Of a DNA stretch of 64,000 bases, positions 19,735 through 63,215 are shown in pieces. Position numbers and translations under genes: made by a program. The stretch is from Candidatus Latescibacterota bacterium (GTDB lineage Bacteria > Latescibacterota > MWCZ01). The stretch spans positions 10,474 to 74,473 of the forward strand of contig JAKJDF010000007.1 of NCBI GenBank assembly GCA_022706085.1. The letters are read 5' to 3'. Positions within the stretch are counted from its first letter, which is position 1. Each line of letters opens with the position of its first letter. The notes under the pieces are model-generated. The model worked only from the letters and a program-made list of their open reading frames with translations, made no database searches and was not told the DNA's origin.

Positions 19735-20952
19735 TCAGCTCCGCACGAAATCCTCCACCCACTGGACCGTTGCTGCTTTGCATTCGTCGGTGTGAATGTG
19801 GCCGACGGAGATGTCGTGCCGGATGGTTACGCTCGAAGACCGCAGACGGTTCAGTGCGGCGTAGTTGCCGACCGGCGGGCAGAGGTCGTCGAGAAAGGCC
19901 ATGCTCCAGAACGTCGGGCATGAAATGCGTGCCGCGAAATTCACCGCGTCTATGTATCGTGCAGTCGCGAGGTGCGCGGGGTCAGGTATGCCGCTCTCCA
20001 CGTTGACGATTTTCGGCCAGCCGGCTACCCTTCCGACCGCAGGGCCGGTGTGATCGCAATGGGTGCAGCACGAGATGACCACGCCGTTCACCTTCCGGTT
20101 CAACGCTGCCGCGGCGATGGCCTGCCCTCCGCCCTGGCTGTGCCCCTCCGCGATGAGGTGGGTGCCGTCCCACTCTGGCCGGGAGGCGAGGAAATCCACC
20201 GCGCGGGCGGCGCGGAGGAACATGGTTCGGAAATAGACTTGTTCGGGGTTTTCGCGGCCGCGGGTGCGGTAGTCCGCAAGGCCACCGTTTCGGAGTTCAA
20301 CGTAGAATTCGCGGTCGCGGTCGTTCGGGATGGGATGCGGGTTGATACTGAACACCATGATGCCGCGTGCGGTCCAGTCGAGCCCGTTTTCCGGTGGGAT
20401 GGCGTAGACGCCGGCACCGTGGTAGCGCGCGATCGCCGGGAAAGGCCCGTTGCCGTGAGGAATGAGCAGCCATCCGTAGATGGCGGTCCCATCGGGCATG
20501 GGTACCCGAACGTTGTGGATCGCGCCATCGGGGTGCACGGTGTGTGGAGACACCGTTGCGTCGAGCGGCAGATCCTTCTGCGCGGCGAGTTGCCGGGCCC
20601 AGTATGCGTCGAAATCCTCCGGCTCCGGCATGGACGGGAGGATGCGTTCGGGCGAAACCGCGGCGGCGGCCTGAGGTGGCTCGGAGGATTCGTCCGACCC
20701 GCCCCAGCGCAGGCGACACCGGAGGAAGCCCGGTTGTTCCGCGCGCACCGTAATCGTCTGCGGCGACGCGCCGATTTTCACCTGTTCTGTATGAACGACG
20801 GCATCGCCATTCCACGTGACGGTTACGGTGACTTCGTCCGGGGGGTTTTCGCCGGCTTTTTCAGCAAGGAAGGAAACCGTCTCGCCGACGCGGTACATGG
20901 CGTCTGCGCGGTCGCACGACACGCGTACGGGGGACGGGGCAACGTCTGGCAT
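19735..20952 (-). CDS. acetyl xylan esterase / cephalosporin-C deacetylase family (CE7-like) with N-terminal beta-sandwich extension
   Basis: Catalytic nucleophile motif GHSQGG, alpha/beta-hydrolase core, 405 aa. Confidence 0.75.
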   Translation of the reverse strand: MPDVAPSPVRVSCDRADAMYRVGETVSFLAEKAGENPPDEVTVTVTWNGDAVVHTEQVKIGASPQTITVRAEQPGFLRCRLRWGGSDESSEPPQAAAAVSPERILPSMPEPEDFDAYWARQLAAQKDLPLDATVSPHTVHPDGAIHNVRVPMPDGTAIYGWLLIPHGNGPFPAIARYHGAGVYAIPPENGLDWTARGIMVFSINPHPIPNDRDREFYVELRNGGLADYRTRGRENPEQVYFRTMFLRAARAVDFLASRPEWDGTHLIAEGHSQGGGQAIAAAALNRKVNGVVISCCTHCDHTGPAVGRVAGWPKIVNVESGIPDPAHLATARYIDAVNFAARISCPTFWSMAFLDDLCPPVGNYAALNRLRSSSVTIRHDISVGHIHTDECKAATVQWVEDFVRS

Positions 20953-23061: not shown

Positions 23062-25497
23062 TCAGCCGAGGACGGTTGACTCCACCAGCGTGGCCACGTC
23101 ATCCCACACGAGTGCGACCGCTTCAGGCGTTGCGTCGGTTTCCTCAAACAGAACGATCGTGTTTGAATCCGCCAGCCAGCACTCCGGCACGTAGTAATCG
23201 GTGTGGCCGTTGATGTTCCAGTAGCGGCCGATGTGGTGGCCGTTTACCCAGATGCACCCCTTGTTGAGGCCCGTGACCCTCACCCAGAGAGGCCGTTTGA
23301 CACGGGTATCCATGGTGAACGAGGCGCGGTACCAGGACACGGGCGAGGGTTGATGCTGCGACCCCCACGGTGCGCTGGCACCGGGGCGGTACCATTCTTC
23401 GTGTTCGCCCAGGAGCTTCGCGTGCATTTCCCATTCCAGCACTTCGTCCGCATCCACCCAGACGCGGCCAAGGATGCCCTTGAGGTCGTCGCGCATGGTG
23501 GGGCTGCCGCGTTTGCCCACCTCCCCAATCTGCCAGTCGCCCTTCACGTGCCCGAGATTGTCCACGAGAATTGCGATCACGTTCTCCCCTGCTTTCAGTT
23601 CCACCGGAACGGTAACGCTCGGTTGGAAACGCCGGTCTTCGACCGGTTCGATTGAGGTGCACACGTGTCCGCCGTTGACGAACACCAGGGCACGATCACT
23701 GACTGCTTCGACATGGAGGAGCGCGGTCCGCGCTTCCCGCGAATGAAAGGCCGCACGGTACCACCCGTAGCCTTCGTGGTCGCCGACAAGGTCTCGCGGA
23801 ACCGGCCGGAGACTGCCCACCCACCCGTTTGGTTCCGAACGCGGGTTCTTACACGGGAGATGGGCATTCTCTATGCAACTATCCCATGGACTGAGCGCCG
23901 GAGGGGCGGGGAGACGGGGAGCCCGGGACGGAACATGCGTCACCGCGTTTTCGGTGACCGTCCACGCGCCAGTGGAGACGGTTGTTGCAGTGTGCTGTAT
24001 TTCCACGCCGTCGGGCACGGCGCGGGCGTAGCTCGCGCCAATCACGAGTCTGTCACCCGCGCACCAGACACGTCCGCAGAAAGAAACAGGGATAACGACG
24101 ACGCGAACGCGTTCTCCGTCCGTCCACTCTCCCGCGATCGCCGGCTCTTCGCTGGAGATCGTGTGTTCAAAGGTCCGGCGCGAAGCCCCGCGGGAGAGGG
24201 TGCAGGAAATGGCGCGGCTTTTTTCGCCCATCAGGACTATGACACGGCAGTCGCCGATCCGGTAGATTCCGTGCAGATGCGAGGCAGTGAAGAGCCGCAG
24301 GTCGGAATCGGGCGCGATCGTTGCGCCCGCAACCACCGGTGCGACGCTTTCGGGAGGAAGGCTCAGCGGTTCGCCCGGGACGCCTTCTTCTGCATACGCC
24401 TGAATCGTTACCGTACGAGCCGCCGGGTTTTTGTAGAAAAGCAAGGTGCCACAGGTGTTTGCGCGTTTCCAGACCTCGATGCCGCCGGGGAGTTTCTGGC
24501 ACGAGGCGTCTGAATCGGCGAGAATGTGAGCGAACGCCTGAGCGAAATGCGCGACAGGAATGGTCAACCGGCCACGCCTGCCGATTCCTCCGGCCTCGCT
24601 GAGCGGAGCATCGTAGTCGTAACTGGTTGTCTGGAGGTACATGGTGGTATAGGCGAAGTTGGTGCCGCCATACCACATGTAGTAGTTGTACCCCGAACCT
24701 CCTTCGGCCAGCACCCGCCAGGTGTGGTAGGCCAGGTGTTCCGGAGAGCGGTTTACCCAGCGGCGGTCGCGATGCCAGGTGAGATACCATGCGGTCCAGA
24801 ATTCGGTGCAGTGGATGGGCATGTTCGGTTGCCGGGAACGGAATTCGGGGAACTGGTCGGCAGGTTCATGGCTGTTGACGGCTTCGATTGCCCCTTCCGC
24901 GGAGCCGGCACATGTTATGAGCGGGACTTCGATTCCGAGGTTGCGCACGAGATCGCGCAGGTGGGACATATAGGCATCGGCATCTTTCTTTTCGGGTACG
25001 ACGTTGCCCAGTTCGTTCTCGATCTGGACGAGGATGACACAGCCGCCGCGGGAGACCTGATGGCGCGCGATTACGGGTATCAGCTTTTCGAACCAGCGGT
25101 CGACGTACCGGAGGTAGACGGGGTCGTGGTGCCTCAGGGTGAGACCGCGTTTTGTCAGCAACCACGCAGGGAATCCGCCGAAATCCCATTCGGCGCAGAT
25201 GTACGGACCGGGCCGCGCGACCACAAAGAGGCCGAACTCCTCGCAGAGTTGAAGGAAGTGCTCGAAATCGTGATCACCGGCGAAATCGAACGCCCCTTCC
25301 TGCGGTTCGTGCCAGTTCCATGCGACGTAGGTCTGGATGGTGTTCAGACCCGCGGCCTTCGCCTTTTCCAGCCGATCCCGCCAGAGGGCGCGGGGAACGC
25401 GGAAATAGTGAATGGAACCTGAAGTGAGAAACTCACGTTTTCCGTTGATGATGAAACTGTGGGCGTCGTAGTGCACTGACGAATTCGGCGCTGGCAT
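23062..25497 (-). CDS. beta-galactosidase, glycoside hydrolase family 35
   Basis: GH35 N-terminal TIM barrel (FIINGKREFLTSGSIHYFR...IQTYVAWNWHEP...GPYICAEWDFGGFPAWL, IENELG) plus C-terminal beta-sandwich domains; GGAGGG ribosome-binding site before MPAPNSS. Confidence 0.85.
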   Translation of the reverse strand: MPAPNSSVHYDAHSFIINGKREFLTSGSIHYFRVPRALWRDRLEKAKAAGLNTIQTYVAWNWHEPQEGAFDFAGDHDFEHFLQLCEEFGLFVVARPGPYICAEWDFGGFPAWLLTKRGLTLRHHDPVYLRYVDRWFEKLIPVIARHQVSRGGCVILVQIENELGNVVPEKKDADAYMSHLRDLVRNLGIEVPLITCAGSAEGAIEAVNSHEPADQFPEFRSRQPNMPIHCTEFWTAWYLTWHRDRRWVNRSPEHLAYHTWRVLAEGGSGYNYYMWYGGTNFAYTTMYLQTTSYDYDAPLSEAGGIGRRGRLTIPVAHFAQAFAHILADSDASCQKLPGGIEVWKRANTCGTLLFYKNPAARTVTIQAYAEEGVPGEPLSLPPESVAPVVAGATIAPDSDLRLFTASHLHGIYRIGDCRVIVLMGEKSRAISCTLSRGASRRTFEHTISSEEPAIAGEWTDGERVRVVVIPVSFCGRVWCAGDRLVIGASYARAVPDGVEIQHTATTVSTGAWTVTENAVTHVPSRAPRLPAPPALSPWDSCIENAHLPCKNPRSEPNGWVGSLRPVPRDLVGDHEGYGWYRAAFHSREARTALLHVEAVSDRALVFVNGGHVCTSIEPVEDRRFQPSVTVPVELKAGENVIAILVDNLGHVKGDWQIGEVGKRGSPTMRDDLKGILGRVWVDADEVLEWEMHAKLLGEHEEWYRPGASAPWGSQHQPSPVSWYRASFTMDTRVKRPLWVRVTGLNKGCIWVNGHHIGRYWNINGHTDYYVPECWLADSNTIVLFEETDATPEAVALVWDDVATLVESTVLG

Positions 25498-25599
25498 GGA
25501 GTTCCCTCCGGGACGGCACGGGTTGGCGAACGTGGACAGGAGTCGCACTGTCGGTACCTACTGAAAAGTACGCGCTCCCGTCTGAAAGGAGAAACTGCG

Positions 25600-46843: not shown

Positions 46844-46964
46844 TTTGCCCGTTGCTTCGGAGCCTTTTCCGGAGGATACCGCAGGGAACCCGGGAGGAAA
46901 CGGCGGGTGGACGGAGTTATCTTTTTTGAGACACTGGAGACACGGAGACGACGAAGGACGATAG

Positions 46965-54477: not shown

Positions 54478-54506
54478 TTGACGGCACACCCGGAAGGAAG
54501 TATAAT
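54478..54506 (+). promoter_or_regulatory. near-consensus sigma70 promoter of tRNA-Asn
   Basis: TTGACG, 17-bp spacer, TATAAT; ends about 30 bp upstream of the tRNA 5' end. Confidence 0.55.
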
Positions 54507-54537
54507 TTAACATTCGACATTTGCTGTCAGTCTGTGA

Positions 54538-54613
54538 TCGGGCGTAGCTCAATCGGCAGAGCGGGTGGCTGTTAACCACTAGGTTACAGGTTCAAGTCCT
54601 GTCGCCCGAGCCA
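54538..54613 (+). tRNA. tRNA-Asn (anticodon GUU)
   Basis: Manual cloverleaf: 7-bp acceptor stem (U1-A72), D-arm GCUC/GAGC, anticodon stem GGUGG/CCACU with loop CUGUUAA (GUU), T-arm ACAGG-UUCAAGU-CCUGU, discriminator G, encoded CCA; 76 nt. Confidence 0.85.
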
Positions 54614-54663
54614 TCATCCACAACCGCGGACCCTGCAGGGCTCAGCGGTTTGAAACTGAGAGC

Positions 54664-54705
54664 AGGGGAAGCGGTCGGAAAACGGCTGCTTCCCCTTTCG
54701 TTTTT
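54664..54705 (+). terminator. Rho-independent terminator downstream of tRNA-Asn
   Basis: AGGGGAAGC ... GCTTCCCCT (9-bp stem) followed by TTCGTTTTT. Confidence 0.5.
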
Positions 54706-54732
54706 CGGGGCGAATATCTGCGGAGAGGCTGT

Positions 54733-54759
54733 CTCACGCGAAGACGCGAAGAACGCGAA
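54733..54759 (+). repeat. CGCGAAGA-repeat element, copy A
   Basis: CTCACGCGAAGACGCGAAGAACGCGAA; three imperfect tandem CGCGAAGA units; member of a five-copy family. Confidence 0.6.
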
Positions 54760-54794
54760 TGGAAGAGCGTGAGGCAAACCGCAGGAGGGATACC

Positions 54795-55001
54795 ATGGCG
54801 GTGTTTGACTGGGCACTTGCACGTGCGCGAACGTTCACCGTGTGGGACTGGGGCGCGCTAAAACTGTGCCTCTTCTCGGCGGGATTGCTTGTGGCAAAGC
54901 TGGTGCCGGGCGTACTGGGGCTTGCCTGGTACTGGTACGCGCTGGTGTTCGCGATCACGTACGTCTGGGTGATGGTGCGGATGTTCGGGAAAAACGCGTG
55001 A
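54795..55001 (+). CDS. hypothetical small membrane protein (68 aa)
   Basis: GGAGGG ribosome-binding site then ATG; two predicted TM helices; flanked on both sides by copies of the CGCGAAGA-repeat element. Confidence 0.35.
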   Translation: MAVFDWALARARTFTVWDWGALKLCLFSAGLLVAKLVPGVLGLAWYWYALVFAITYVWVMVRMFGKNA

Positions 55002-55012
55002 GCAGAGCCCGC

Positions 55013-55041
55013 ATCACACGAAGACGCGAAGAACGCGAAGG
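55013..55041 (+). repeat. CGCGAAGA-repeat element, copy B
   Basis: ATCACACGAAGACGCGAAGAACGCGAAGG. Confidence 0.6.
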
Positions 55042-55125
55042 AACCGGTGCCACGTGCATTGTTCGTTCGCTGATCCGACGCTTACGTCGCAATTCACTTC
55101 TTCCCACCCGGGCGAGGACATTTTG

Positions 55126-56748
55126 TCAAACGGCGTCTTCCCCGCGCACGTGGAGTTCAAGTTTTCTTTCCTCGCTTTCCCGGTAACCAATCCTTATCGA
55201 CTTGCATCGCAGAACGTGGTCTCCCGGCTCAATGCGCAAGGGTTCGGTGTAGAGCAACCAGCGGGGTGCGTTTCCCGTCTCGAACGTGTATGCGATTGAC
55301 GCGCCCTGTGTTGCGCAATGCAACTGGATCAGCGCGGGGGCGTTGAGCGTGCATTGCTCCCACGCCTGCTGCGTTCCCGGAATCTCCCGGCAGATGGGAA
55401 TGAACGTGGGCGGCGCGGTTACCGGTTGGACGCCGTCCGGGTACCACCGCCGCACCATCTCGCTTTCGGAAAGCTCCCCCAAATCACCGACTTCGTGCAG
55501 CCAGTCATCCAGTGCTGCCCTGAGCCGGCCGAGCTCCGCCTCGTGCGTCGCGTCACCGGCAAGGTTATGGATTTCATACGGGTCGGTTTCCGTGTCGTAC
55601 AACTCTTCTGTCGGGCGGGGATACCGAAACATCAGTGATTGGGCTTCGTTCAGTTCGCCGGCGAGATGGAGGCGCCACATCTCCTGCATGATCGGGTGGC
55701 GGTTCAGGTAAGGTATCCAGAGCTGGTACGGAAGCTCCGGACGGCAGTTGCGGATGTATTTGAAGCGGTGATCCCGCACGGCCCGCACCATGTCGTATGA
55801 TTCGTCGTACCTGTCGCGCGTGGCGAACACGTACTCGCGGGGTGGTTTTGCCCCGGGCCCCAGAAACGCCTGCCCCTGCAGGTGGTAAGGTACTTCCAAT
55901 CCCGCGAGCGAGAGCACGGTTGGGCCGAGGTCTACGGTGCTCACGAGGTCGCCACTCACCTTTCCCGGTTCGATGCCGGGTCCCCGGCAGATGAGCGGCA
56001 CGTGGATTCCGGAGTCATACGGCCAGCGTTTGCCGCGCGGCAGTGGCCCGTGGTCGCTCCAGTGGAAGACATACGTGTTTTCCGCCAGCCCGTCTTCTTC
56101 CAGTTGTGCGAGGAGCTGACCGAGTTCCGTATCGCTCTCCTCGATGTGCGTGTACATCCGCGCCATGGCCTCGCGCACCTTCGGCGTATCGGGGAAACAG
56201 GGCGGGAGTTGCATGTCGGCGGGGTCGAACCTGAGTTCGCGGCAGTTTTCGGGCCACATGCCGCTTTCGTGGGTGCGCGTAGGGTTGAACACGGCGAAGA
56301 ACGGCTGGTCGGGGTTGGGCCGGTTGCGCCAGTGGGCCTGCGTACCGCATTCATCCCAGGCGGTGACGGGCGGATCGAACTGGTAGTCGGTTTTGGCGTT
56401 GTTCGTGCAGAAATAGCCCGCGGCGCGCAGATATTCGGTGAAGCATTTCACGTAATGCGGCACTACGGCGGAATAGGGCGTGGGCAACTCAGGCGTTCCC
56501 GGGTTCGTGTGCGACGTGCGCATGTGGTGCGTGCCGATGGAGATCGGATACATGCCGGTGATAACGGCGGAGCGGGCGGGGGCGCAGACGGGCGCGGTGG
56601 AGAAGCAGTGCGTCCACCGGCAGCCCTGCGCGGCCAGCCGGTCGAGGTTCGGCGTGCGGGCTACCGGGTCACCGTAACAGCCGTAGAACGGGTTGGTGTC
56701 CTCGAAGGATATCCAGAGGAAGCTGGGTCTGCGTTTTGCACCGGGCAT
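55126..56748 (-). CDS. sulfatase (Cys-type arylsulfatase family)
   Basis: Formylglycine motif CAPARSAVITGMYP (C-x-P-x-R), sulfatase core, C-terminal extension; start MPGAKRRPSFLWISFED. Confidence 0.85.
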   Translation of the reverse strand: MPGAKRRPSFLWISFEDTNPFYGCYGDPVARTPNLDRLAAQGCRWTHCFSTAPVCAPARSAVITGMYPISIGTHHMRTSHTNPGTPELPTPYSAVVPHYVKCFTEYLRAAGYFCTNNAKTDYQFDPPVTAWDECGTQAHWRNRPNPDQPFFAVFNPTRTHESGMWPENCRELRFDPADMQLPPCFPDTPKVREAMARMYTHIEESDTELGQLLAQLEEDGLAENTYVFHWSDHGPLPRGKRWPYDSGIHVPLICRGPGIEPGKVSGDLVSTVDLGPTVLSLAGLEVPYHLQGQAFLGPGAKPPREYVFATRDRYDESYDMVRAVRDHRFKYIRNCRPELPYQLWIPYLNRHPIMQEMWRLHLAGELNEAQSLMFRYPRPTEELYDTETDPYEIHNLAGDATHEAELGRLRAALDDWLHEVGDLGELSESEMVRRWYPDGVQPVTAPPTFIPICREIPGTQQAWEQCTLNAPALIQLHCATQGASIAYTFETGNAPRWLLYTEPLRIEPGDHVLRCKSIRIGYRESEERKLELHVRGEDAV

Positions 56749-56785
56749 GTCAGTGCCTTTCCTGCTGACGCAACAATACAAGAGG

Positions 56786-56807
56786 CTCACGCGAAGACAC
56801 GAAGCAG
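56786..56807 (+). repeat. CGCGAAGA-repeat element, copy C (shorter)
   Basis: CTCACGCGAAGACACGAAGCAG, 40-60 bp upstream of the sulfatase start on the opposite strand. Confidence 0.5.
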
Positions 56808-56859
56808 TTCGTGGACGTTGTGGACTTGTTGGACAGGATCAGCGGTACTGCGCCTCCGT

Positions 56860-58566
56860 TCAGGAATCCGCCTCACGGCTCACCGGAAGAATGAGCGATG
56901 AAGGGTATTTCGGGCTATGGAAAACCTTCTGCTCGGCGATCACCGTCTCTGCATCGAGAAGGTCATCTCTCCCTGTACCGTGGTTGCGATCATGATTGGG
57001 AAAGTCGCTGCTGCATATATCGAGTCGAATGCGGTGCCCCTTGCGGAAGCAGCACGAGGTAATTCCCATGCGAACGTGAAATCGGGTCACTTCACCGGGA
57101 ATCAGGAGGTCTTCCGAATCGAGTCCGTTGCGGTGCCGTGCGCGGACCATCCCGTAACACACCTCCATCGCTGCTCCACCGGGATCATCGTCCACGAGCC
57201 GGACAAAGAAATCAGTATCAACCGCAGAAGACGACGCGTACAGCACGACTTCCGGGTTTCCCACCACCTCGACGTCCTCTTCGAGTGGCGCGGTGCGGTA
57301 GCGCAGGATATCGTTCCGATAATCGAGGCGGCGGCGGTCGGACACGTTGTAGAAGTACGCCGTGTCCCACGGCGTCGGGACAGGATCAAACGGGTCGTGC
57401 GTGAACGTGTCGGGAGGCTCGTTTGTCCGGGGTTCGGCCAGCAAAGCTCCGGAACCTTCCGGAAGATGGGCGTCTCCCTCGCCTGCGAGGTAAAAGGTCG
57501 TGAGGTGGACGTTCGGCGGCGGCCACGTCTCCGCCGATTTCCACGTTCCCGATCCCATGACAAAGTAACGCACTGCCGGCTCTCGCGCTGTGCCATTGTC
57601 AATGCCCTTCAGCCAGTAGTCGAACCAGCGAATCTGCATCAGCTGGATGTTCACTTCAGCATCCTAGCCAAAATCCAACTCGCCCTGTCTGCGTCGCCCG
57701 AGGCTTACGTGATTCCAGGGCCCGATGATGACTTTTGTCTGATTGCGCGCTTTCTCAGACCGTGCATTCCTCCGCATGCCGATGAAATGCTCGATGCTGC
57801 AGCAGTGATCAAACCAGCCGGTGAAGTCGAGGTTGGGCACGTCAATGTCCCTGTGGGCCTCGTCAAATCTCCAGGGGCGCCGGGCAGGATGACGCAACCA
57901 GTCGGCCACCTGCTCTGCGAGCGGGGAAGGTAGATACCGGGCGACGTGGACCCACGGCAACAGCCCGAGCATTCTGCCCTGTTCGAGTTCATCCCATATC
58001 TTCGCTGCCTCCGCGGGTGTGTGAGGCGGAGGAAGGCCCTTCCGGCGCCGGAGATCCGGAGCGATGGTAGTCACCCACCATTTGGCGCGACGCGCCGGCT
58101 TGAACGCGCCGGGCCAGTCTATATCCGTCAATTCCGTCGGGATTGAGACGGCGCTCATCGCCACCAGATGTGGCGGCCGGAGCCGGGCAAGCTGGTACTG
58201 CATCCAGGCGTTGTACGAAACGCCGAATGTGCCGACCTTCCCGTTGCACCAGGGCTGAAATGCAGCCCATTCCACAGTGTCGTAGCCGTCCTCGGCGTCA
58301 CCCGTGTTCTCCTCAGAGAACACCTTGAATTCGCCCTCAGACGCGTAGCGACCGCGGGTATCCTGGGTGACGACCACGTACCCCGCACGGACAAAGTCCT
58401 CGAACCCGCCCTGAGCCTTGCCGTACGGCGTCCTCTGCACAAGCGCGGGGAAACGGCCTGATGAATCCGGACGGAACACGTTGGCGCGCAACGTGATGCC
58501 GTCCCGCATTGGCACGGGGACGTCACGTTCGACGATGATGCCCAACGCACCGGTCTCTTGCTCCAT
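56860..58566 (-). pseudogene. CocE/NonD-family hydrolase (S15 peptidase / alpha-beta hydrolase) interrupted by one in-frame TAG
   Basis: ORFs 57664..58566 and 56860..57654 are in the same frame, separated only by TAG (plus-strand CTA at 57664-57666); together 568 aa, matching the N-terminal hydrolase domain (VPMRDGITLRANVFRP...) plus C-terminal beta-sandwich. Confidence 0.65.
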
Positions 58567-58683
58567 GGCGTGGTCTCCTCCATATGCTAATTCGGATGCA
58601 GGCGGCGTAAGGTGTTCCCGGCGGCGCTCCTCTGATGGCGTGTTCGTTGCAAGAAGGCCGAACGGGGCCGCGATTGCCCTCGG

Positions 58684-60141
58684 CTATTTCAACACGACGT
58701 TCTCCGCGAATTCCCCTATGTACACGTTCGCTTTCTCAAGCGTCTTCATCCGGACGCCGTTGCGGTACAGGCCTTCGATTGTCACGTTTTCCACCCGGTG
58801 GTGCGCGTCGTATCCGCGAAATGACGATGGCGGCATCCGGTCCGAACGCACGTGGATGTTCCGATACGTGATGTCGGAAATGCGACCCCGCTCCTTCCTG
58901 CCTTCGCTGTATTCCGGGTGTTCGGTGATGCTGCAGCCCATCAACGTAGGCAACCACGGGGAGTGCGGATCCACCGGGAAGGTCTCCGCGTCGTCTCTCT
59001 GGATGCGCGGCCGCTGGTACACCGGGTCCATTTCCACCCGAATATTCTCGAACAGCACGTCGTGAACGTGGCCGTAATCCACATTGCCGATGTTCAGGGC
59101 GATATCCAGACTCCGGATCACGTCCATGTTACGGAAAGTCAGGTTGCGCATATGGTCCGCGCAACACTCCGCGCCGATTTCGAGGCAGTGGTCCCAATCG
59201 CACCAGACGACGCAGTTCTCCACCAGTATGTCCTCGCACACCTGCTGGTAGCCGAGGTGCCCTTTGAAGCAGATGGAATCATCGAAGGTGCGGACGAAGC
59301 AATCGGTGACGTGGCATCGGCGGCAGTTGTGAAAATCGATGCCGTCCGTGTTGAAGCGCCAGCTCCCGATGATCTTCAGATTCCTGATTTCGACATCGTC
59401 GCACCCCCACAGGCCGACGTTGTAGACCAGTGAATCACGAATCGTGAACCCGTCCAGAACCACGTCCTGACAGCGGATCAGCTGGATGGTGTGCTCTCGT
59501 TTCGCGTTACGGACGTCGAACATGCCATCGCCGAGTTTTTCCATCGGGAACAGGATGGTCTCCACGTTTTTGCTGTTATCCAGCACTCCCCGGCCGAGGA
59601 TGCGGATGCCCCGGCAGTCGGTGGCGTGGATGCAACCGTAAACGACAGCGCCTTCGTCAATGAACACGGTCTGGCCGTCTTTGAGCTCAAGGATTCCGAC
59701 GTCGTGGCAGCCCGGACCGAAGTAGATGGTCGCGGGGCCGTGCGGATCGACCGCGTAGTTCGCGGGCGGATCCGCGAACAGGTGCAGGTTATGGTGGTAG
59801 CCATCCATCTCGAGCGAGTAACCGCCCGGCGACGGGAGAATGAAGGTGATGACGCCGTTCTCGACCTGCGGGTGCACGTTCTTCGACAGCGGCCGCACCA
59901 CGACGTCCTTGAAGGCGCGCCCAGGCCGCACCTGAACGGTTACCGGCTCGGTCATCTCCAACGAGGTGAAGTACGCGATCTCGGATTGCTCGATCTGCCG
60001 CTGATGCCCCGGCCATCGGCGATTGAACGGCACGGCGGATACGCGGCAGAGCTGCACCGGGGCTTTCTGGCCGTCAAGCAGGCAGAGGATGTCGTCGGCG
60101 ACCGGTATTTCCCCGGGTACGCGATATGTGCGAGCGGGCAT
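58684..60141 (-). CDS. glycoside hydrolase family 28 (polygalacturonase-like, right-handed beta-helix)
   Basis: GH28 motifs NTDGIDF, FDDSICFKG and RN...; start MPARTYRVPGE after AGGAG. Confidence 0.8.
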   Translation of the reverse strand: MPARTYRVPGEIPVADDILCLLDGQKAPVQLCRVSAVPFNRRWPGHQRQIEQSEIAYFTSLEMTEPVTVQVRPGRAFKDVVVRPLSKNVHPQVENGVITFILPSPGGYSLEMDGYHHNLHLFADPPANYAVDPHGPATIYFGPGCHDVGILELKDGQTVFIDEGAVVYGCIHATDCRGIRILGRGVLDNSKNVETILFPMEKLGDGMFDVRNAKREHTIQLIRCQDVVLDGFTIRDSLVYNVGLWGCDDVEIRNLKIIGSWRFNTDGIDFHNCRRCHVTDCFVRTFDDSICFKGHLGYQQVCEDILVENCVVWCDWDHCLEIGAECCADHMRNLTFRNMDVIRSLDIALNIGNVDYGHVHDVLFENIRVEMDPVYQRPRIQRDDAETFPVDPHSPWLPTLMGCSITEHPEYSEGRKERGRISDITYRNIHVRSDRMPPSSFRGYDAHHRVENVTIEGLYRNGVRMKTLEKANVYIGEFAENVVLK

Positions 60142-60192
60142 TCGGGGGCTCCTTTGAGTGGAGGCAATCCTGGTCTTCAAACCAAAAAAAAG

Positions 60193-60222
60193 CTCACGCG
60201 AAGACACGAAGACGCGAAGGGG
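60193..60222 (+). repeat. CGCGAAGA-repeat element, copy D
   Basis: CTCACGCGAAGACACGAAGACGCGAAGGGG, about 50-80 bp upstream of the GH28 start on the opposite strand. Confidence 0.6.
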
Positions 60223-60264
60223 TGTGGCGTTTTTCGGGCCTACCCCGGCGGATCGTCTTTCTCG

Positions 60265-60615
60265 CTACGGGACGTGCAGCGCGTGCGAAGCGACGAGTAT
60301 CACGAACGCGGAAACGCCCAGAACGCTGATGAGCAATTCCCGTTTGAACTTCGTGTACTCTCCGGCCTTCGCCGTCACGTAATGTACGAGAGCCTTCCAG
60401 TTCATGATGACATGTGCGACTGCGGCAACGAGAAACAGTAACGAGGCGGAGTTGTGAAGCGTCATGAACAGGTGGCTCCACCGGGTGTTGCCCTCATGCG
60501 AAGCGAGGTGGAGCGCGATGCCGGAGGGGACCAGCCACAGGCCGGCACAGAACAGGGCCACGGATGCAAGGGGGCGCACGCTGATGGCCGGTTTATCAGA
60601 CGATGCATCGTTCAT
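60265..60615 (-). CDS. hypothetical membrane protein
   Basis: About 116 aa from MNDASSDKP (GGAAAGG ribosome-binding site); 3-4 hydrophobic helices. Confidence 0.45.
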   Translation of the reverse strand: MNDASSDKPAISVRPLASVALFCAGLWLVPSGIALHLASHEGNTRWSHLFMTLHNSASLLFLVAAVAHVIMNWKALVHYVTAKAGEYTKFKRELLISVLGVSAFVILVASHALHVP

Positions 60616-60641
60616 GGCCAGAACCTTTCCGGCAAGAATAA

Positions 60642-60674
60642 CGCACGCGAAGACGCGAAGAGCGCGAAGGGGTG
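60642..60674 (+). repeat. CGCGAAGA-repeat element, copy E
   Basis: CGCACGCGAAGACGCGAAGAGCGCGAAGGGGTG, about 27 bp upstream of the membrane-protein start on the opposite strand, at the edge of the low-GC R-M island. Confidence 0.6.
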
Positions 60675-60736
60675 GATGGAGGGGGTGGAAAGGGCGCGTG
60701 GGAAGGCATTCAAACGGCATCCTTTTCGGTACCCGG

Positions 60737-61279
60737 TTACACCTCCTTCACGGGTAAACCGAACCAGGCAAGGGGGACTTCATTGAACTTGTAATGGCAA
60801 TTCACGCTTTGGATATAATCCAGCACATCCTTGTATTCTGGTTTCTTGAACCAATCGTTCAGGACGTAGACGTATTCGACCCGTAATCCCAAGGGACTGA
60901 CCAGTTTCAGATACTGTTTCCGTTTGAAATCGCAGGTTTGCAGTTTCTCGTCCACCGACCCTGCTACCTGTTGATATTTGACTTCGATGATGAACAAAGT
61001 TTCCCGCACAATGACCAAGAGCGCATCGTCCGGAAGCAGTTTCTTACTGATCTTGCTCTGCCAATCGATTCCGCGCTCGCGAAGAAACCGGTAAAAATCA
61101 TGCTTCCTGAAGCACCTGGCAACCAGCTTGCCTTCGAATAAAACATCCACGCCGGCCTTGCCATCGACTTGGACAATGTCATAACCAGGGATTTCCCGCA
61201 GAATCGTTGCCAGATCAACTCTGCTTTCGAAGCGCAACCCCGTGCGCGTGTTCGCTCCACCTGACCCACCGGATTTCAT
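60737..61279 (-). CDS. putative Type II restriction endonuclease (PD-(D/E)xK fold)
   Basis: 180 aa; candidate catalytic motif LLPDD...LFIIEVKYQ (PD...E-V-K); start ATG overlaps the methyltransferase stop (ATGA); local GC clearly below the window average. Confidence 0.55.
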   Translation of the reverse strand: MKSGGSGGANTRTGLRFESRVDLATILREIPGYDIVQVDGKAGVDVLFEGKLVARCFRKHDFYRFLRERGIDWQSKISKKLLPDDALLVIVRETLFIIEVKYQQVAGSVDEKLQTCDFKRKQYLKLVSPLGLRVEYVYVLNDWFKKPEYKDVLDYIQSVNCHYKFNEVPLAWFGLPVKEV

Positions 61280-62124
61280 GTTGATACCTGTGCGAAATTC
61301 AGCGAAGATAGTCTTTGATTGATGGCGTTCCCCAGTCGCTGCATCGACAATTTGACGAACTCGGCTTCCAGTTCGCAGCCAACGAATCTGCGGTTTAGGA
61401 GAACACACGCGACTCCGGTCGTCGAGCTACCGGAAAACGGGTCAAACACCACGTCACTTTCAACTGTGCTCGCCAGAATAATCCTCTCCAAAAGAGCCAC
61501 TGGTTTCTGGGTGGGATGTTTTCCGAACTCCTTTTCGGCGCCATTTGGGGCAGGAATGCTCCAAACAGACTTCATTTGCCTGCCGGCATTGAGTTCACGC
61601 ATTTTGTCGTAATTGAAACGATGTCGAGACTTACCACTCCTCGCAGCCCATATCACCGTTTCCGTCGAATGCGTGAAGTAACGACAAGACAAGTTGGGCG
61701 GAGGGTTTGGTTTTTCCCAAGTTATGTCGTTCAGGATTTTCATCCCCAGTTGCTGCATCGCATAACCGACAGAGTAAATCACGTGGTGAGTTCCCGAGAC
61801 CCAAATTGTGCCATCCGGCTTCAGCAGCTTTTGGCATCTTGAAAGCCATGTCCTGTTGAACTGATGATTCGTTTCCGCTCCATTGGACCTGTCCCACTGT
61901 CCCTTGTCAACTTTCACCATCCTTCCAGCGTGACAAGTAATACCGCCGTTAGAGAGGAAATAGGGCGGGTCCGCGAAGATCATGTCAAACCTGCCATCGG
62001 GGTATTTTCCGATGAGCATGTCCATGAACTCAATGCAGTCTGCTTGATAGAGCCACACACCGAACTCGTCATTGCGGAACACACATTGATTCGGCGCGAA
62101 TTCCGAGCTTTCCATCATTACCAT
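61276..62124 (-). CDS. DNA methyltransferase, beta-class amino-methyltransferase (probably N6-adenine)
   Basis: Motif IV DPPY (IFADPPYF) precedes motif I FDPFSGSSTTGVA, the order diagnostic of beta-class N6A/N4C methyltransferases; low-GC region. Confidence 0.85.
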   Translation of the reverse strand: MVMMESSEFAPNQCVFRNDEFGVWLYQADCIEFMDMLIGKYPDGRFDMIFADPPYFLSNGGITCHAGRMVKVDKGQWDRSNGAETNHQFNRTWLSRCQKLLKPDGTIWVSGTHHVIYSVGYAMQQLGMKILNDITWEKPNPPPNLSCRYFTHSTETVIWAARSGKSRHRFNYDKMRELNAGRQMKSVWSIPAPNGAEKEFGKHPTQKPVALLERIILASTVESDVVFDPFSGSSTTGVACVLLNRRFVGCELEAEFVKLSMQRLGNAINQRLSSLNFAQVST

Positions 62125-62363
62125 CGGGAAGTCTTCTTTCTCCCCGATCCCACCGTATCCTTCCAAAGCGGACTCCCGATATTTGTCATACCGTTCGTGC
62201 CCTGTGTTTGTTGCACACGCCCCTTATCGAGGAGGCAACTGGGCATTTGCAAAACGCGAGGCAACAACTGAAAAACCCTTGAAACCGGGCGGATGAGCGT
62301 CCTCAACCTGATTACAGGCGCGCTCTGTTCGTGGAGTTATGTAACGCAACAACCCTGGACAAG

Positions 62364-63215
62364 TCAACCCCAAAGCCGCGAGTGCTTTCTCGCGTTATCC
62401 CACCCCGGTGGCTTGAGAAGCCTCGCTGCGCGCTTCTTCGCCTCTGACAGGAAAACCGCGCGATCCGTGAAGCGTGAGTTGCCGATGTCGGTTTCCAACA
62501 GGAGGTTGCCACGGTAGTCGAATGAATGGAACAGCTGCCGGAAGCGTTCCCAGTCGGTGGTGCCCTCCCACGGGAGAACGTGGGCGTCCCTCGAGCCGTC
62601 ATTGTCGTGGATATGGACAGTGAAGAGGCGGTGCCCGAAGCGCTCGAGCGTGGCGAAACTGCCGTCTTTCACGTGCTCGTGCCCGGAATCGTAGCAGAGG
62701 CCGACGTGCGGATCGGTGAATTCGTTCAGGAACGCGGTCAGCACGTCGTCGTATTCCTGTTTCTGGCCGTTTTCCATCGCCAATCTGACGCCGGTTTTGC
62801 CCGCGTAGTCCGCGAGCGCGCCGACGCTGCGGCGCCCCCGTTCGATCATCCGGTTCCGGGTGTCGCCTTCCGGGATGCCGTACGGCTGGATGAGGTGGAT
62901 GACGACGGTGCGGCTTTCCAGTTCTGATGCGGCGTCCATGACGAGCTGGCAGAGCCGGACGGATTCCGCGCGCTCGGCGTCATCAAGCGAGAAGAGCCGG
63001 TCGCCTTCGGGGAACGGTGCGTGGACGGAATCAACCGTCAGGCCGTGTTCTTCCATCAGTCTGCGGATCCCGGCTCTCCCCTCGGTGGTGGCATACCCCG
63101 AGTGCCCCGGCCGGCCGCCCAGCGCGACGACCTCGAACCCTGCCGCGGCGATCAACGCGACAGCTTCCGGGAACGGCAGGTTGTAGTCAAATGACGTGCA
63201 GATAGCAGGTTTCAT
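62364..63215 (-). CDS. sugar phosphate isomerase/epimerase (xylose-isomerase-like TIM barrel)
   Basis: 283 aa with conserved acidic/His metal ligands in TIM-barrel pattern (VHAPF, HLIQP, ENGQ, HIHDND, ETD); ATGA overlap with upstream gene. Confidence 0.75.
   Translation of the reverse strand: MKPAICTSFDYNLPFPEAVALIAAAGFEVVALGGRPGHSGYATTEGRAGIRRLMEEHGLTVDSVHAPFPEGDRLFSLDDAERAESVRLCQLVMDAASELESRTVVIHLIQPYGIPEGDTRNRMIERGRRSVGALADYAGKTGVRLAMENGQKQEYDDVLTAFLNEFTDPHVGLCYDSGHEHVKDGSFATLERFGHRLFTVHIHDNDGSRDAHVLPWEGTTDWERFRQLFHSFDYRGNLLLETDIGNSRFTDRAVFLSEAKKRAARLLKPPGWDNARKHSRLWG

Follow-up and report, generated by a model that had tools for sequence, protein, structure and literature searches.

Intergenic three-octamer repeats at the module junctions of a strain-variable island in a Latescibacterota bacterium, and the link of their family to GxxExxY genes

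The island described here is located in a 64,000-nt stretch of a contig from Candidatus Latescibacterota bacterium (JAKJDF010000007.1, positions 10,474 to 74,473 of the forward strand), referred to below as the window, in which it extends from a tRNA-Asn gene to an AP_endonuc_2 gene (54614-62450). Five copies of a repeat of around 30 nt, called arms in this text and numbered e1 to e5 by rising coordinate, are distributed along this island, which was found to be strain-variable through comparison with the related contigs L243, L249, L247, L248 and L265. The copies in the window belong to a family of arms that is also present in other genomes, this family is physically linked to genes of the GxxExxY type, and the arms coincide with recombination junctions in the lineage of the window.

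The tRNA-Asn gene (54538-54613, + strand) has a near-consensus promoter and a strong terminator, and its signals (54478-54706, +), i.e., a sigma-70 promoter of the form TTGACG-17-TATAAT and an intrinsic terminator with a 14-bp stem, indicate that the organism uses canonical signals, none of which accompany the arms. A scan for sigma-70 promoters and terminators found nothing at the arms of the window. The island itself contains a small open reading frame (ORF) of 68 aa (54795-55001, +), a sulfatase gene (55126-56749, -, with its start ATG at 56749 and its stop at 55126), an S15/PepX peptidase gene interrupted by an in-frame TAG (56860-58566, -), a GH28 gene (58684-60141, -, ATG at 60141), a DUF4405 membrane-protein gene (60265-60616, -, ATG at 60616 and stop at 60265) and a restriction-modification (R-M) pair formed by a PD-(D/E)XK-like protein and an N6_N4 methylase (60737-62166, -), with the arms placed at the junctions of these modules. 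The GC content, which is 62% in the background, falls to about 50% at 60.7-62.2 kb, and the R-M pair has this same value of about 50%.

The five arms are all intergenic and all on the + strand, and both their coordinates and the gene map agree with an earlier note on this DNA, which had placed them at 54733, 55013, 56786, 60193 and 60642 in a single orientation. The arm e1 (54733-54761, +; CTCACGCGAAGACGCGAAGAACGCGAATG) has the head CTCA and the units CGCGAAGA, CGCGAAGA and A-CGCGAATG, and is found 37 nt past the tRNA-Asn terminator and 33 nt ahead of the ATG of the small ORF. The arm e2 (55013-55041, +; ATCACACGAAGACGCGAAGAACGCGAAGG), with the head ATCA and the units CACGAAGA, CGCGAAGA and A-CGCGAAGG, has the stop codon of the small ORF (55001) on one side and that of the sulfatase gene (55126) on the other, and these two copies bracket the tiny ORF downstream of the tRNA-Asn gene, as had been reported. 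In the case of e3 (56786-56804, +; CTCACGCGAAGACACGAAG), the head CTCA is followed by two units and the arm is located upstream of the sulfatase ATG (56749, -), while e4 (60193-60225, +), formed by the head CTCA, the units CGCGAAGA, CACGAAGA and CGCGAAGG and then GGTG, lies in the spacer of the GH28 and DUF4405 genes, upstream of the ATG of the former (60141, -) and 3' of the stop of the latter (60265). Finally, e5 (60642-60674, +) consists of the head CGCA, the units CGCGAAGA, CGCGAAGA and G-CGCGAAGG and a terminal GGTG, and is upstream of the DUF4405 ATG (60616, -). Without their GGGTG extensions, e4 and e5 end at 60220 and 60670, respectively. The earlier placement of e3, e4 and e5 upstream of the minus-strand starts of the sulfatase, GH28 and membrane-protein genes was thus reproduced, at measured distances of 36, 51 and 25 nt, respectively, and no arm is present ahead of the PepX gene. 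Four of the five copies have a head of the type (C/A)TCA or CGCA followed by three C[AG]CGAAG[AG] units, with a single extra base between units 2 and 3 in e1, e2 and e5, and the claim of three units per copy is correct for these four and fails for e3.

There are 13 occurrences of the octamer CGCGAAGA in the window, where 4.8 would be expected, and arrays of at least two units are found five times on the + strand and not once on the - strand, where a simulated sequence of 64 kb gives 0.003. When the five copies are aligned together with their flanks, the similarity ends with the element of about 30 nt, and the flanks cannot be aligned. A profile (nhmmer) based solely on arms from other genomes, 234 in number, has e1 to e5 as its top five matches in the window, all on the + strand, with E values from 1.2e-4 (e4, the best) to 0.2, and 4.5e-4 for e1, and to this extent the earlier claim that the repeats are confined to 6 kb holds; it must be qualified by a possible sixth, degenerate arm (46931-46960, +; CACTGGAGA, CACGGAGA, CGACGAAGG), which has a weak profile match at 46936-46958 (E 0.46). 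This sequence is preceded by a T-run on its 5' side and lies in the dnaK-dnaJ spacer, 4 nt upstream of the dnaJ ATG (46965), being the sole candidate arm outside the island within the window. The window arms are direct repeats without internal complementarity, with no attC-type imperfect hairpin (R''-L''/L'-R'), and the folding of four of them, on both strands, yields z-scores of -0.4 to +1.1, which are not significant, with the folding of e1 being marginal owing to a 7-nt flanking inverted repeat. The GTAG tag is absent from the five copies.

The related contigs, which were fetched through the GH28 protein, have identities of 99-100% (L243 and L249), 90% (L247 and L248) and 85% (L265), and the stretch from the tRNA-Asn gene to the AP_endonuc_2 gene varies among them through five indel or replacement breakpoints that fall exactly at arm edges. 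At the tail of e5, after ...CGCGAAGG, the window continues with 1.8 kb that include the R-M pair, where L243 and L249 have an unrelated sequence of about 130 bp, and at the tail of e3 ends the deletion that removes PepX from L243. The third breakpoint is the head of e3, where the replacement of the 5'UTR of the sulfatase gene in L247 starts; up to the ATG of that gene, the two sequences cannot be aligned, and the flanks on both sides are homologous. In the case of e1, L247 carries an MNT/HepT toxin-antitoxin pair of 739 bp after the tRNA terminator and before the arm, and its homology with the window resumes exactly at the head. The fifth breakpoint is the tail of e2, from which L247 has 165 extra nucleotides with two more arms in the same orientation, and in that contig three arms follow one another with no genes between them. 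The arm e3 lacks exactly one 8-nt unit relative to its orthologues in L247 and L243, in L247 and L248 the region that precedes the GH28 ATG is replaced as a whole, and L265 has, between DUF4405 and the arm on the R-M side, an extra module composed of a fucosidase-like gene and a second arm. No recognisable counterpart of e4 is found in the DUF4405-GH28 spacer of L265, which is diverged and unalignable.

Some features of these contigs may be mentioned in their own right. The R-M pair looks like a recent acquisition, given that it is missing from the 99%-identical L243 and L249, and a diverged copy of its nuclease-like gene adjoins an arm in L265. The TAG of the PepX gene is at about 57655-57663 (...ELDFG*DAEV...) and the L247 orthologue is intact, with 564 aa; in GCA_002070295.1 there is a segment identical to the window in which PepX is also split into two ORFs and, given this shared split, the gene of the window is probably a true pseudogene. 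The 68-aa ORF is a real gene, which differs from its L247 counterpart by 18 synonymous and nine non-synonymous codon changes, is conserved in L247 and L243 through purifying selection, and codes for two predicted hydrophobic segments, with no Pfam or NCBIfam match. It is also the only gene of the island on the + strand and the only one between two direct-orientation arms. In L247 (13324-15455), only the last few bases of the tRNA-Asn gene stand before the conserved terminator and a gene for an OLD-family nuclease (AAA_15 plus TOPRIM) lies alongside, and this region looks like a defence island integrated at the 3' end of the tRNA gene, with GAGCCATCATCCA as the att-like remnant.

The distribution of the family beyond the window was obtained by scanning for CRCGAAGACRCGAAGA in 185,579 species genomes of the GTDB collection, one per species (596 Gb in all), which gave at least 120 loci. 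Given that chance alone would produce on the order of a thousand matches in 596 Gb, these loci were judged by their surroundings and, among the matches listed, full arrays of at least three units were present at 82 of 120 loci, in at least 15 phyla. The matches listed include Acidobacteria, Planctomycetes, Verrucomicrobia, Gemmatimonadetes, Nitrospirota, Cyanobacteria and Bacteroidetes, and arms also occur in Chloroflexi (Anaerolineae, Chloroploca and Thermomicrobiales), Lentisphaerae (Oligosphaera ethanolica DSM 24202), Firmicutes (Pelosinus and Heliobacteriaceae) and alpha-, beta-, gamma-, delta- and zetaproteobacteria, as well as on viral and proviral contigs. No arm copy was found in E. 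coli genomes.

The unit of the family is C-R-C-R-R-A-G-R, repeated three times in tandem at a spacing of 8-9 nt, with the last unit mostly ending in G, and exactly three units are present in 118 of the 130 arrays. The period is 8 bp in 192 cases and 9 bp in 63, the first period being nearly always 8 nt and the second either 8 or 9 nt, which places the extra base mostly between units 2 and 3. The head is TTCAC, TTAAC or (C/T)TCA before CGC-type units, with the 5' flank consensus T-T-[A/C]-A-C, and the heads of the window copies, CTCA in e1, e3 and e4, ATCA in e2 and CGCA in e5, precede CGC/CAC units and conform to this pattern. The variants CGCAGAGA, CGCGGAGG, CGCCAAGA and CACAAAGA of the unit are found at the same loci with the head and the three-unit layout unchanged, and the units inside a single array tend towards likeness.

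The position of the arrays relative to genes was determined with a crude gene caller, which was applied to loci with a GC content of 60% or more because it is reliable there. In this sample, 117 of 139 arrays (about 84%) are intergenic in DNA that is 84% coding, with the solo arms somewhat more often in the orientation of the window, i.e., with the tail towards the upstream gene end (21:10), and the paired arms preferring convergent gene ends (14:4). Over all arrays, the orientation towards genes is not fixed (34 vs 30). Head-out pairs outnumber head-in pairs (26 vs 7), with spacers of 10 to about 130 bp, and paired arms can form stems of 24-32 bp; as the two arms of one pair often differ in unit variant, a perfect hairpin is not the constraint. 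In some genomes the arms form dense clusters (L077, 367-636; L291, 300-1384; L093, 1822-4248), which in Parvibaculum (L077) consist of three forward arrays with three unit variants followed by three inverted partners in roughly mirrored order, and in Thioalkalivibrio (L093) include four elements about 110 bp long, with a conserved internal core of about 58 nt common to two. The clusters of L077 and L093 resemble the bacterial interspersed mosaic element clusters of E. coli. Sphingomonas parapaucimobilis, Methylobacter tundripaludum and Oligosphaera ethanolica DSM 24202 are cultivable species rich in arms.

The genes that adjoin the arms are unrelated housekeeping and accessory genes, and an all-against-all BLASTP together with a Pfam scan of 150 adjacent small ORFs returned only histidine kinases, which are generic, and PF13366 (PDDEXK_3) as recurrent neighbours. 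The latter is the only small gene family that recurs beside the arms, in three unrelated genomes (L033, L060 and L105), and a BLAST search of plasmid records with the consensus arm gave a match beside another such GxxExxY gene, inserted between fabD and fabG on a replicon of Sphingomonas parapaucimobilis (L277). At all four loci, the GxxExxY gene is enclosed by two head-out inverted arms, and it is the only recurrent cargo, given that widely spaced convergent arms otherwise enclose ordinary genes. An autonomous transposon had been considered as the content of such convergent arms, and this candidate was rejected when the genes proved to be of the phage gp49-like, MerR, BMC and pterin dehydratase types.

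A further sample of GxxExxY genes was drawn by protein alone, from viral contigs and a protein search with at least 8000 clusters, and both arms were present at all seven distinct loci of this clade (L278, L283, L284, L287, L288, L291 and L300), including the viral contig L278, where both are of this class. At the protein-sampled loci, about 20 nt separate the end of the upstream arm from the GxxExxY ATG, and the stop is followed after 3-10 nt by the inverted downstream arm; of the six loci from the protein search, three have hutI on one side and a hutG-type gene on the other, and two sit among further gene-less pairs. Distant GxxExxY genes from AT-rich viral contigs (L279-L282) have arms of another kind, in which a short repeat stands three or four times in tandem, as with TTCC-CGCAGATAA in three copies, ATTATAAATAAAA in a variable number of copies and TGGTATTTAGAAT in three, with AT-rich 13-mers among them, and the flanking repeats of L282 are apparently direct rather than inverted. 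All the sampled proteins match TIGR04256, and the gene, of about 125 aa, codes for a PD-(D/E)XK nuclease with a restriction-endonuclease-like fold, in which E27, D67, E77 and K79, the residues expected at the active site, are invariant in 30 GxxExxY sequences. The one survey found to list the family gives its function as unknown and records that it was transferred multiple times, among divisions of bacteria and archaea (PMC3424549). A PDB search by sequence gave no match.

It is moderately probable, in our assessment, that the window copies are non-autonomous remnants, i.e., solo arms, of a GxxExxY-associated family of mobile repeats comparable to repetitive extragenic palindromic (REP) elements and their associated tyrosine transposases (RAYT), and that they are recombination hot spots. 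The unit formed by two inverted arms and a GxxExxY gene would be the autonomous form, and the gene-less pairs and solo arms would be its non-autonomous derivatives or its targets, as REP and REPIN sequences are to RAYT. The extensive horizontal spread of the family would also fit a system of this kind. From this architecture and by analogy, we infer that a GxxExxY nuclease, encoded elsewhere in the genome or present in the past, may recognise or cut the arms, spread them and make them recombinogenic. The arms of the window would then be the break-and-join points of the variable island next to the tRNA-Asn gene, with PepX, the R-M pair, the toxin-antitoxin pair, the fucosidase-like gene and the extra arms being gained or lost exactly at their edges, and any effect of the arms on the expression of neighbouring genes would be incidental. 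A wider proposal, advanced tentatively and judged to fall somewhat short of probable, is that the GxxExxY proteins are the nucleases of an unrecognised, pan-bacterial class of miniature mobile elements, that the three-repeat arrays are the ends or targets of these elements and the gene-less arms their non-autonomous progeny, and that arms which are cut and repaired become the seams of accessory genes in variable islands.

A number of observations weigh against the reading of the window copies as solo arms of a mobile family. All of the arms of the window point the same way without any inverted partner, which a model of mobile elements does not by itself predict, and neither the 64-kb window nor its related contigs were found to contain a GxxExxY gene. 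At 10 gene-containing units no duplication of the target site is evident, and there is no clean pair of empty and filled sites, with the one empty fabD/fabG site being too diverged to interpret. Between the window and L247, arms at orthologous positions have changed less than the intergenic DNA around them, which could reflect a function for the host rather than selfish persistence, and the genes fill most of the island, so that the ends of any indel must fall in short intergenic spacers and only the exact coincidence with arm edges is informative. Alternatively, the arms could have been there first, as targets for homing by the GxxExxY genes, and not be the termini of an element. As regards the fabD/fabG site, the empty spacer of L310 (S. 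paeninsulae, about 870-905) contains GTTCAGAA, and the filled site of L277 (2480-2946) reads ...GGTTCA[arm-gene-arm]TGAAAAA...; from this comparison, a single case between diverged sequences, it could be a palindromic target, and not the element, that gave rise to the TTCA/TGAA heads, one candidate for the target being a TTCnGAA-like palindrome.

Among the rival explanations, low-complexity matches by chance or local slippage with no common origin, to which the short tandem repeats and the difference of exactly one unit in e3 would lend themselves, are refuted by the array counts (five observed, 0.003 predicted), by a head, a three-unit layout and unit features common to hundreds of copies elsewhere, and by the profile matches to foreign arms, which leave this explanation with a negligible probability. 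The earlier note had proposed a direct-repeat site in the style of those of response regulators that would define a small regulon, and operators for a response regulator or a ribbon-helix-helix protein co-regulating the sulfatase, GH28 and DUF4405 genes would agree with the three copies 25-51 nt upstream of start codons, with the conservation of orthologous arms within diverged intergenic DNA and with the tandem 8-bp boxes known from the operators of MetJ-type repressors. This explanation nonetheless fails because the distribution, spacing, position and orientation of the arms are all unsuitable: the arm is found in at least 15 phyla beside unrelated genes, with many copies between convergent gene ends and no rule of orientation or distance, its period is 8-9 bp rather than the roughly 10.5 bp of half-sites spaced by 10-11 bp, it points one way relative to the small ORF on the + strand and the other way relative to the genes on the minus strand, and e2 has a gene end on either side. 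In addition, the arms have no sigma-70-like promoter nearby, unlike the neighbouring tRNA gene, no arm precedes PepX, and other carbohydrate-active genes of the window, AXE1 (19735-20952) and GH35 (23062-25548), have no arm. Operators are thus quite improbable, and the five repeats are not supported as a local regulon signal; the alternative that had been offered with it, a short repetitive extragenic element, is supported and takes a more specific form as an arm of about 30 nt that is mostly intergenic and present in at least 15 phyla, and the repeat family merits follow-up.

Integron-like cassette sites, at which a recombinase would insert or excise a gene together with its 3' arm beside the tRNA-Asn gene, would account for the uniform orientation of the island arms, which is the main point in favour of this explanation, and also for the arm that follows nearly every gene of the island, the modules that vary between strains with junctions at arm edges, the single extra unit of gene plus arm between two arms in L265 and the three gene-less arms in a row in L247. 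It is unlikely, however, as a Pfam scan of 28 of the approximately 55 ORFs of the window and a few ORFs of L247 and L265 found no integrase or recombinase, the arms have no attC-like fold (z-scores near 0), the family is elsewhere scattered singly or as inverted pairs rather than in arrays, and the replaced segments are not simple one-arm cassettes, with the R-M segment exchanged for an unrelated 130 bp. A similarly low probability is attributed to a role in RNA, as sites of Rho loading or RNase III processing or as insulators, in which the arms would act through unstructured tracts rich in C/U or in purines or, when paired, through long stems, and would be kept by host selection. The conservation of the arms relative to their flanks, the capacity of paired arms to form stems of 24-32 bp, the GxxExxY units inside operons with no obvious polarity problems and the mild orientation bias of solo arms (21:10, tail towards the upstream gene end) would all be compatible with such a role, but the arms of a pair often differ in unit variant and would pair poorly, the window copies have no significant structure, both orientations relative to transcription occur and there is no Rfam match, in addition to which the conservation of sequence, rather than structure, across phyla would not be expected of a mere stem or unstructured tract.

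The Rfam searches returned tRNAs only, both for the window region at E<=1 and for 18 hairpin-type loci at gathering thresholds, and no description of the arm element was found in the searchable literature, although papers beyond it may hold one. Two papers that were considered, one on intrastrand triplexes and another on GTAG/CGTC REP sequences, concern other motifs. A number of other candidates were discarded for fitting only a subset of the heads or missing features they need, namely a DnaA box or parS half-site in the head, extracytoplasmic function or sigma-54 promoters, attC, Xer/dif sites, the GTTC targets of IS91, Hfq or CsrA sites, and a connection, via Type IIS sites (GAAGAC, GACGC), with the neighbouring R-M system.

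If the arms are indeed the solo members of a GxxExxY-associated mobile family, a role would be provided for the large family PF13366/TIGR04256, whose function is unknown, and an explanation would be available for an intergenic sequence of about 30 nt common to Chloroflexi, Planctomycetes, Cyanobacteria and Proteobacteria. This would also represent a second case of a nuclease gene with a population of miniature repeats, mechanistically unlike REP/RAYT, and would point to repeats of this kind as what determines where genes are gained and lost in accessory islands. In genome annotation, the arms should not be called operators or small ORFs. Assemblers may also break contigs at the arms, and the GxxExxY-bearing metagenome contigs, typically of only 1-2 kb, would fit this.

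Among known systems, the operators of the OmpR/PhoB type and the met-boxes of MetJ are also tandem direct repeats near promoters, from which the arms differ in their distribution, orientation, position and gene content. The attC sites of integrons and the clusters of attC lacking integrases (CALINs) share with the lineage of the window the separation of single ORFs by sites of one orientation in a strain-variable array, but the arms have no attC-like hairpin, recognition would be by sequence rather than by structure, no IntI was seen among the 28 ORFs of the window and the few of L247 and L265 that were scanned, and outside this island the arm sites are scattered. Free-standing homing endonuclease genes and the ORFs of 23S rRNA intervening sequences (four-helix-bundle proteins, TIGR02436) are likewise small selfish ORFs, inserted between or within conserved genes or operons and bounded by inverted repeats, and some homing endonucleases, such as I-Ssp6803I, have the PD-(D/E)XK fold. 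Here, the target would itself be a dispersed repeat, and the homing of GxxExxY genes is only a possibility.

Miniature inverted-repeat transposable elements have inverted arms, a short and variable non-coding core and many copies per genome, as in the present case, and similar elements of about 100-130 bp with conserved cores are found at the L093 and Anaerolineae loci. Unlike them, the arms have no target-site duplication that was seen and no relative of DDE transposases that was found, the two arms of one element often differ in unit variant, and solo arms are common.

The REP/REPIN-RAYT system of Proteobacteria is also based on short (20-40 nt), high-copy, intergenic repeats, which frequently form inverted doublets or clusters and are enriched at convergent gene ends, as are the arms of other genomes, with the window copies being solo. 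In both systems, a small nuclease-type gene lies between inverted repeats, in that of REP is thought to mobilise the gene-less copies, and appears to co-vary with the sequence of the repeat. On the other hand, each REP is individually palindromic, with a GTAG or CGTC tag, whereas the arms are non-palindromic and made up of three direct octamers; the RAYT gene codes for a Y1 HUH transposase (PF01797) and the arm-flanked gene for a PD-(D/E)XK nuclease (PF13366/TIGR04256); and REP families are species-specific, whereas the arm sequence is common across phyla. Short extragenic repeats with an associated nuclease gene are already known as a kind of system, within which the arm family is distinguished by its non-palindromic arms of three octamers, its PD-(D/E)XK partner and its identity of sequence across phyla.

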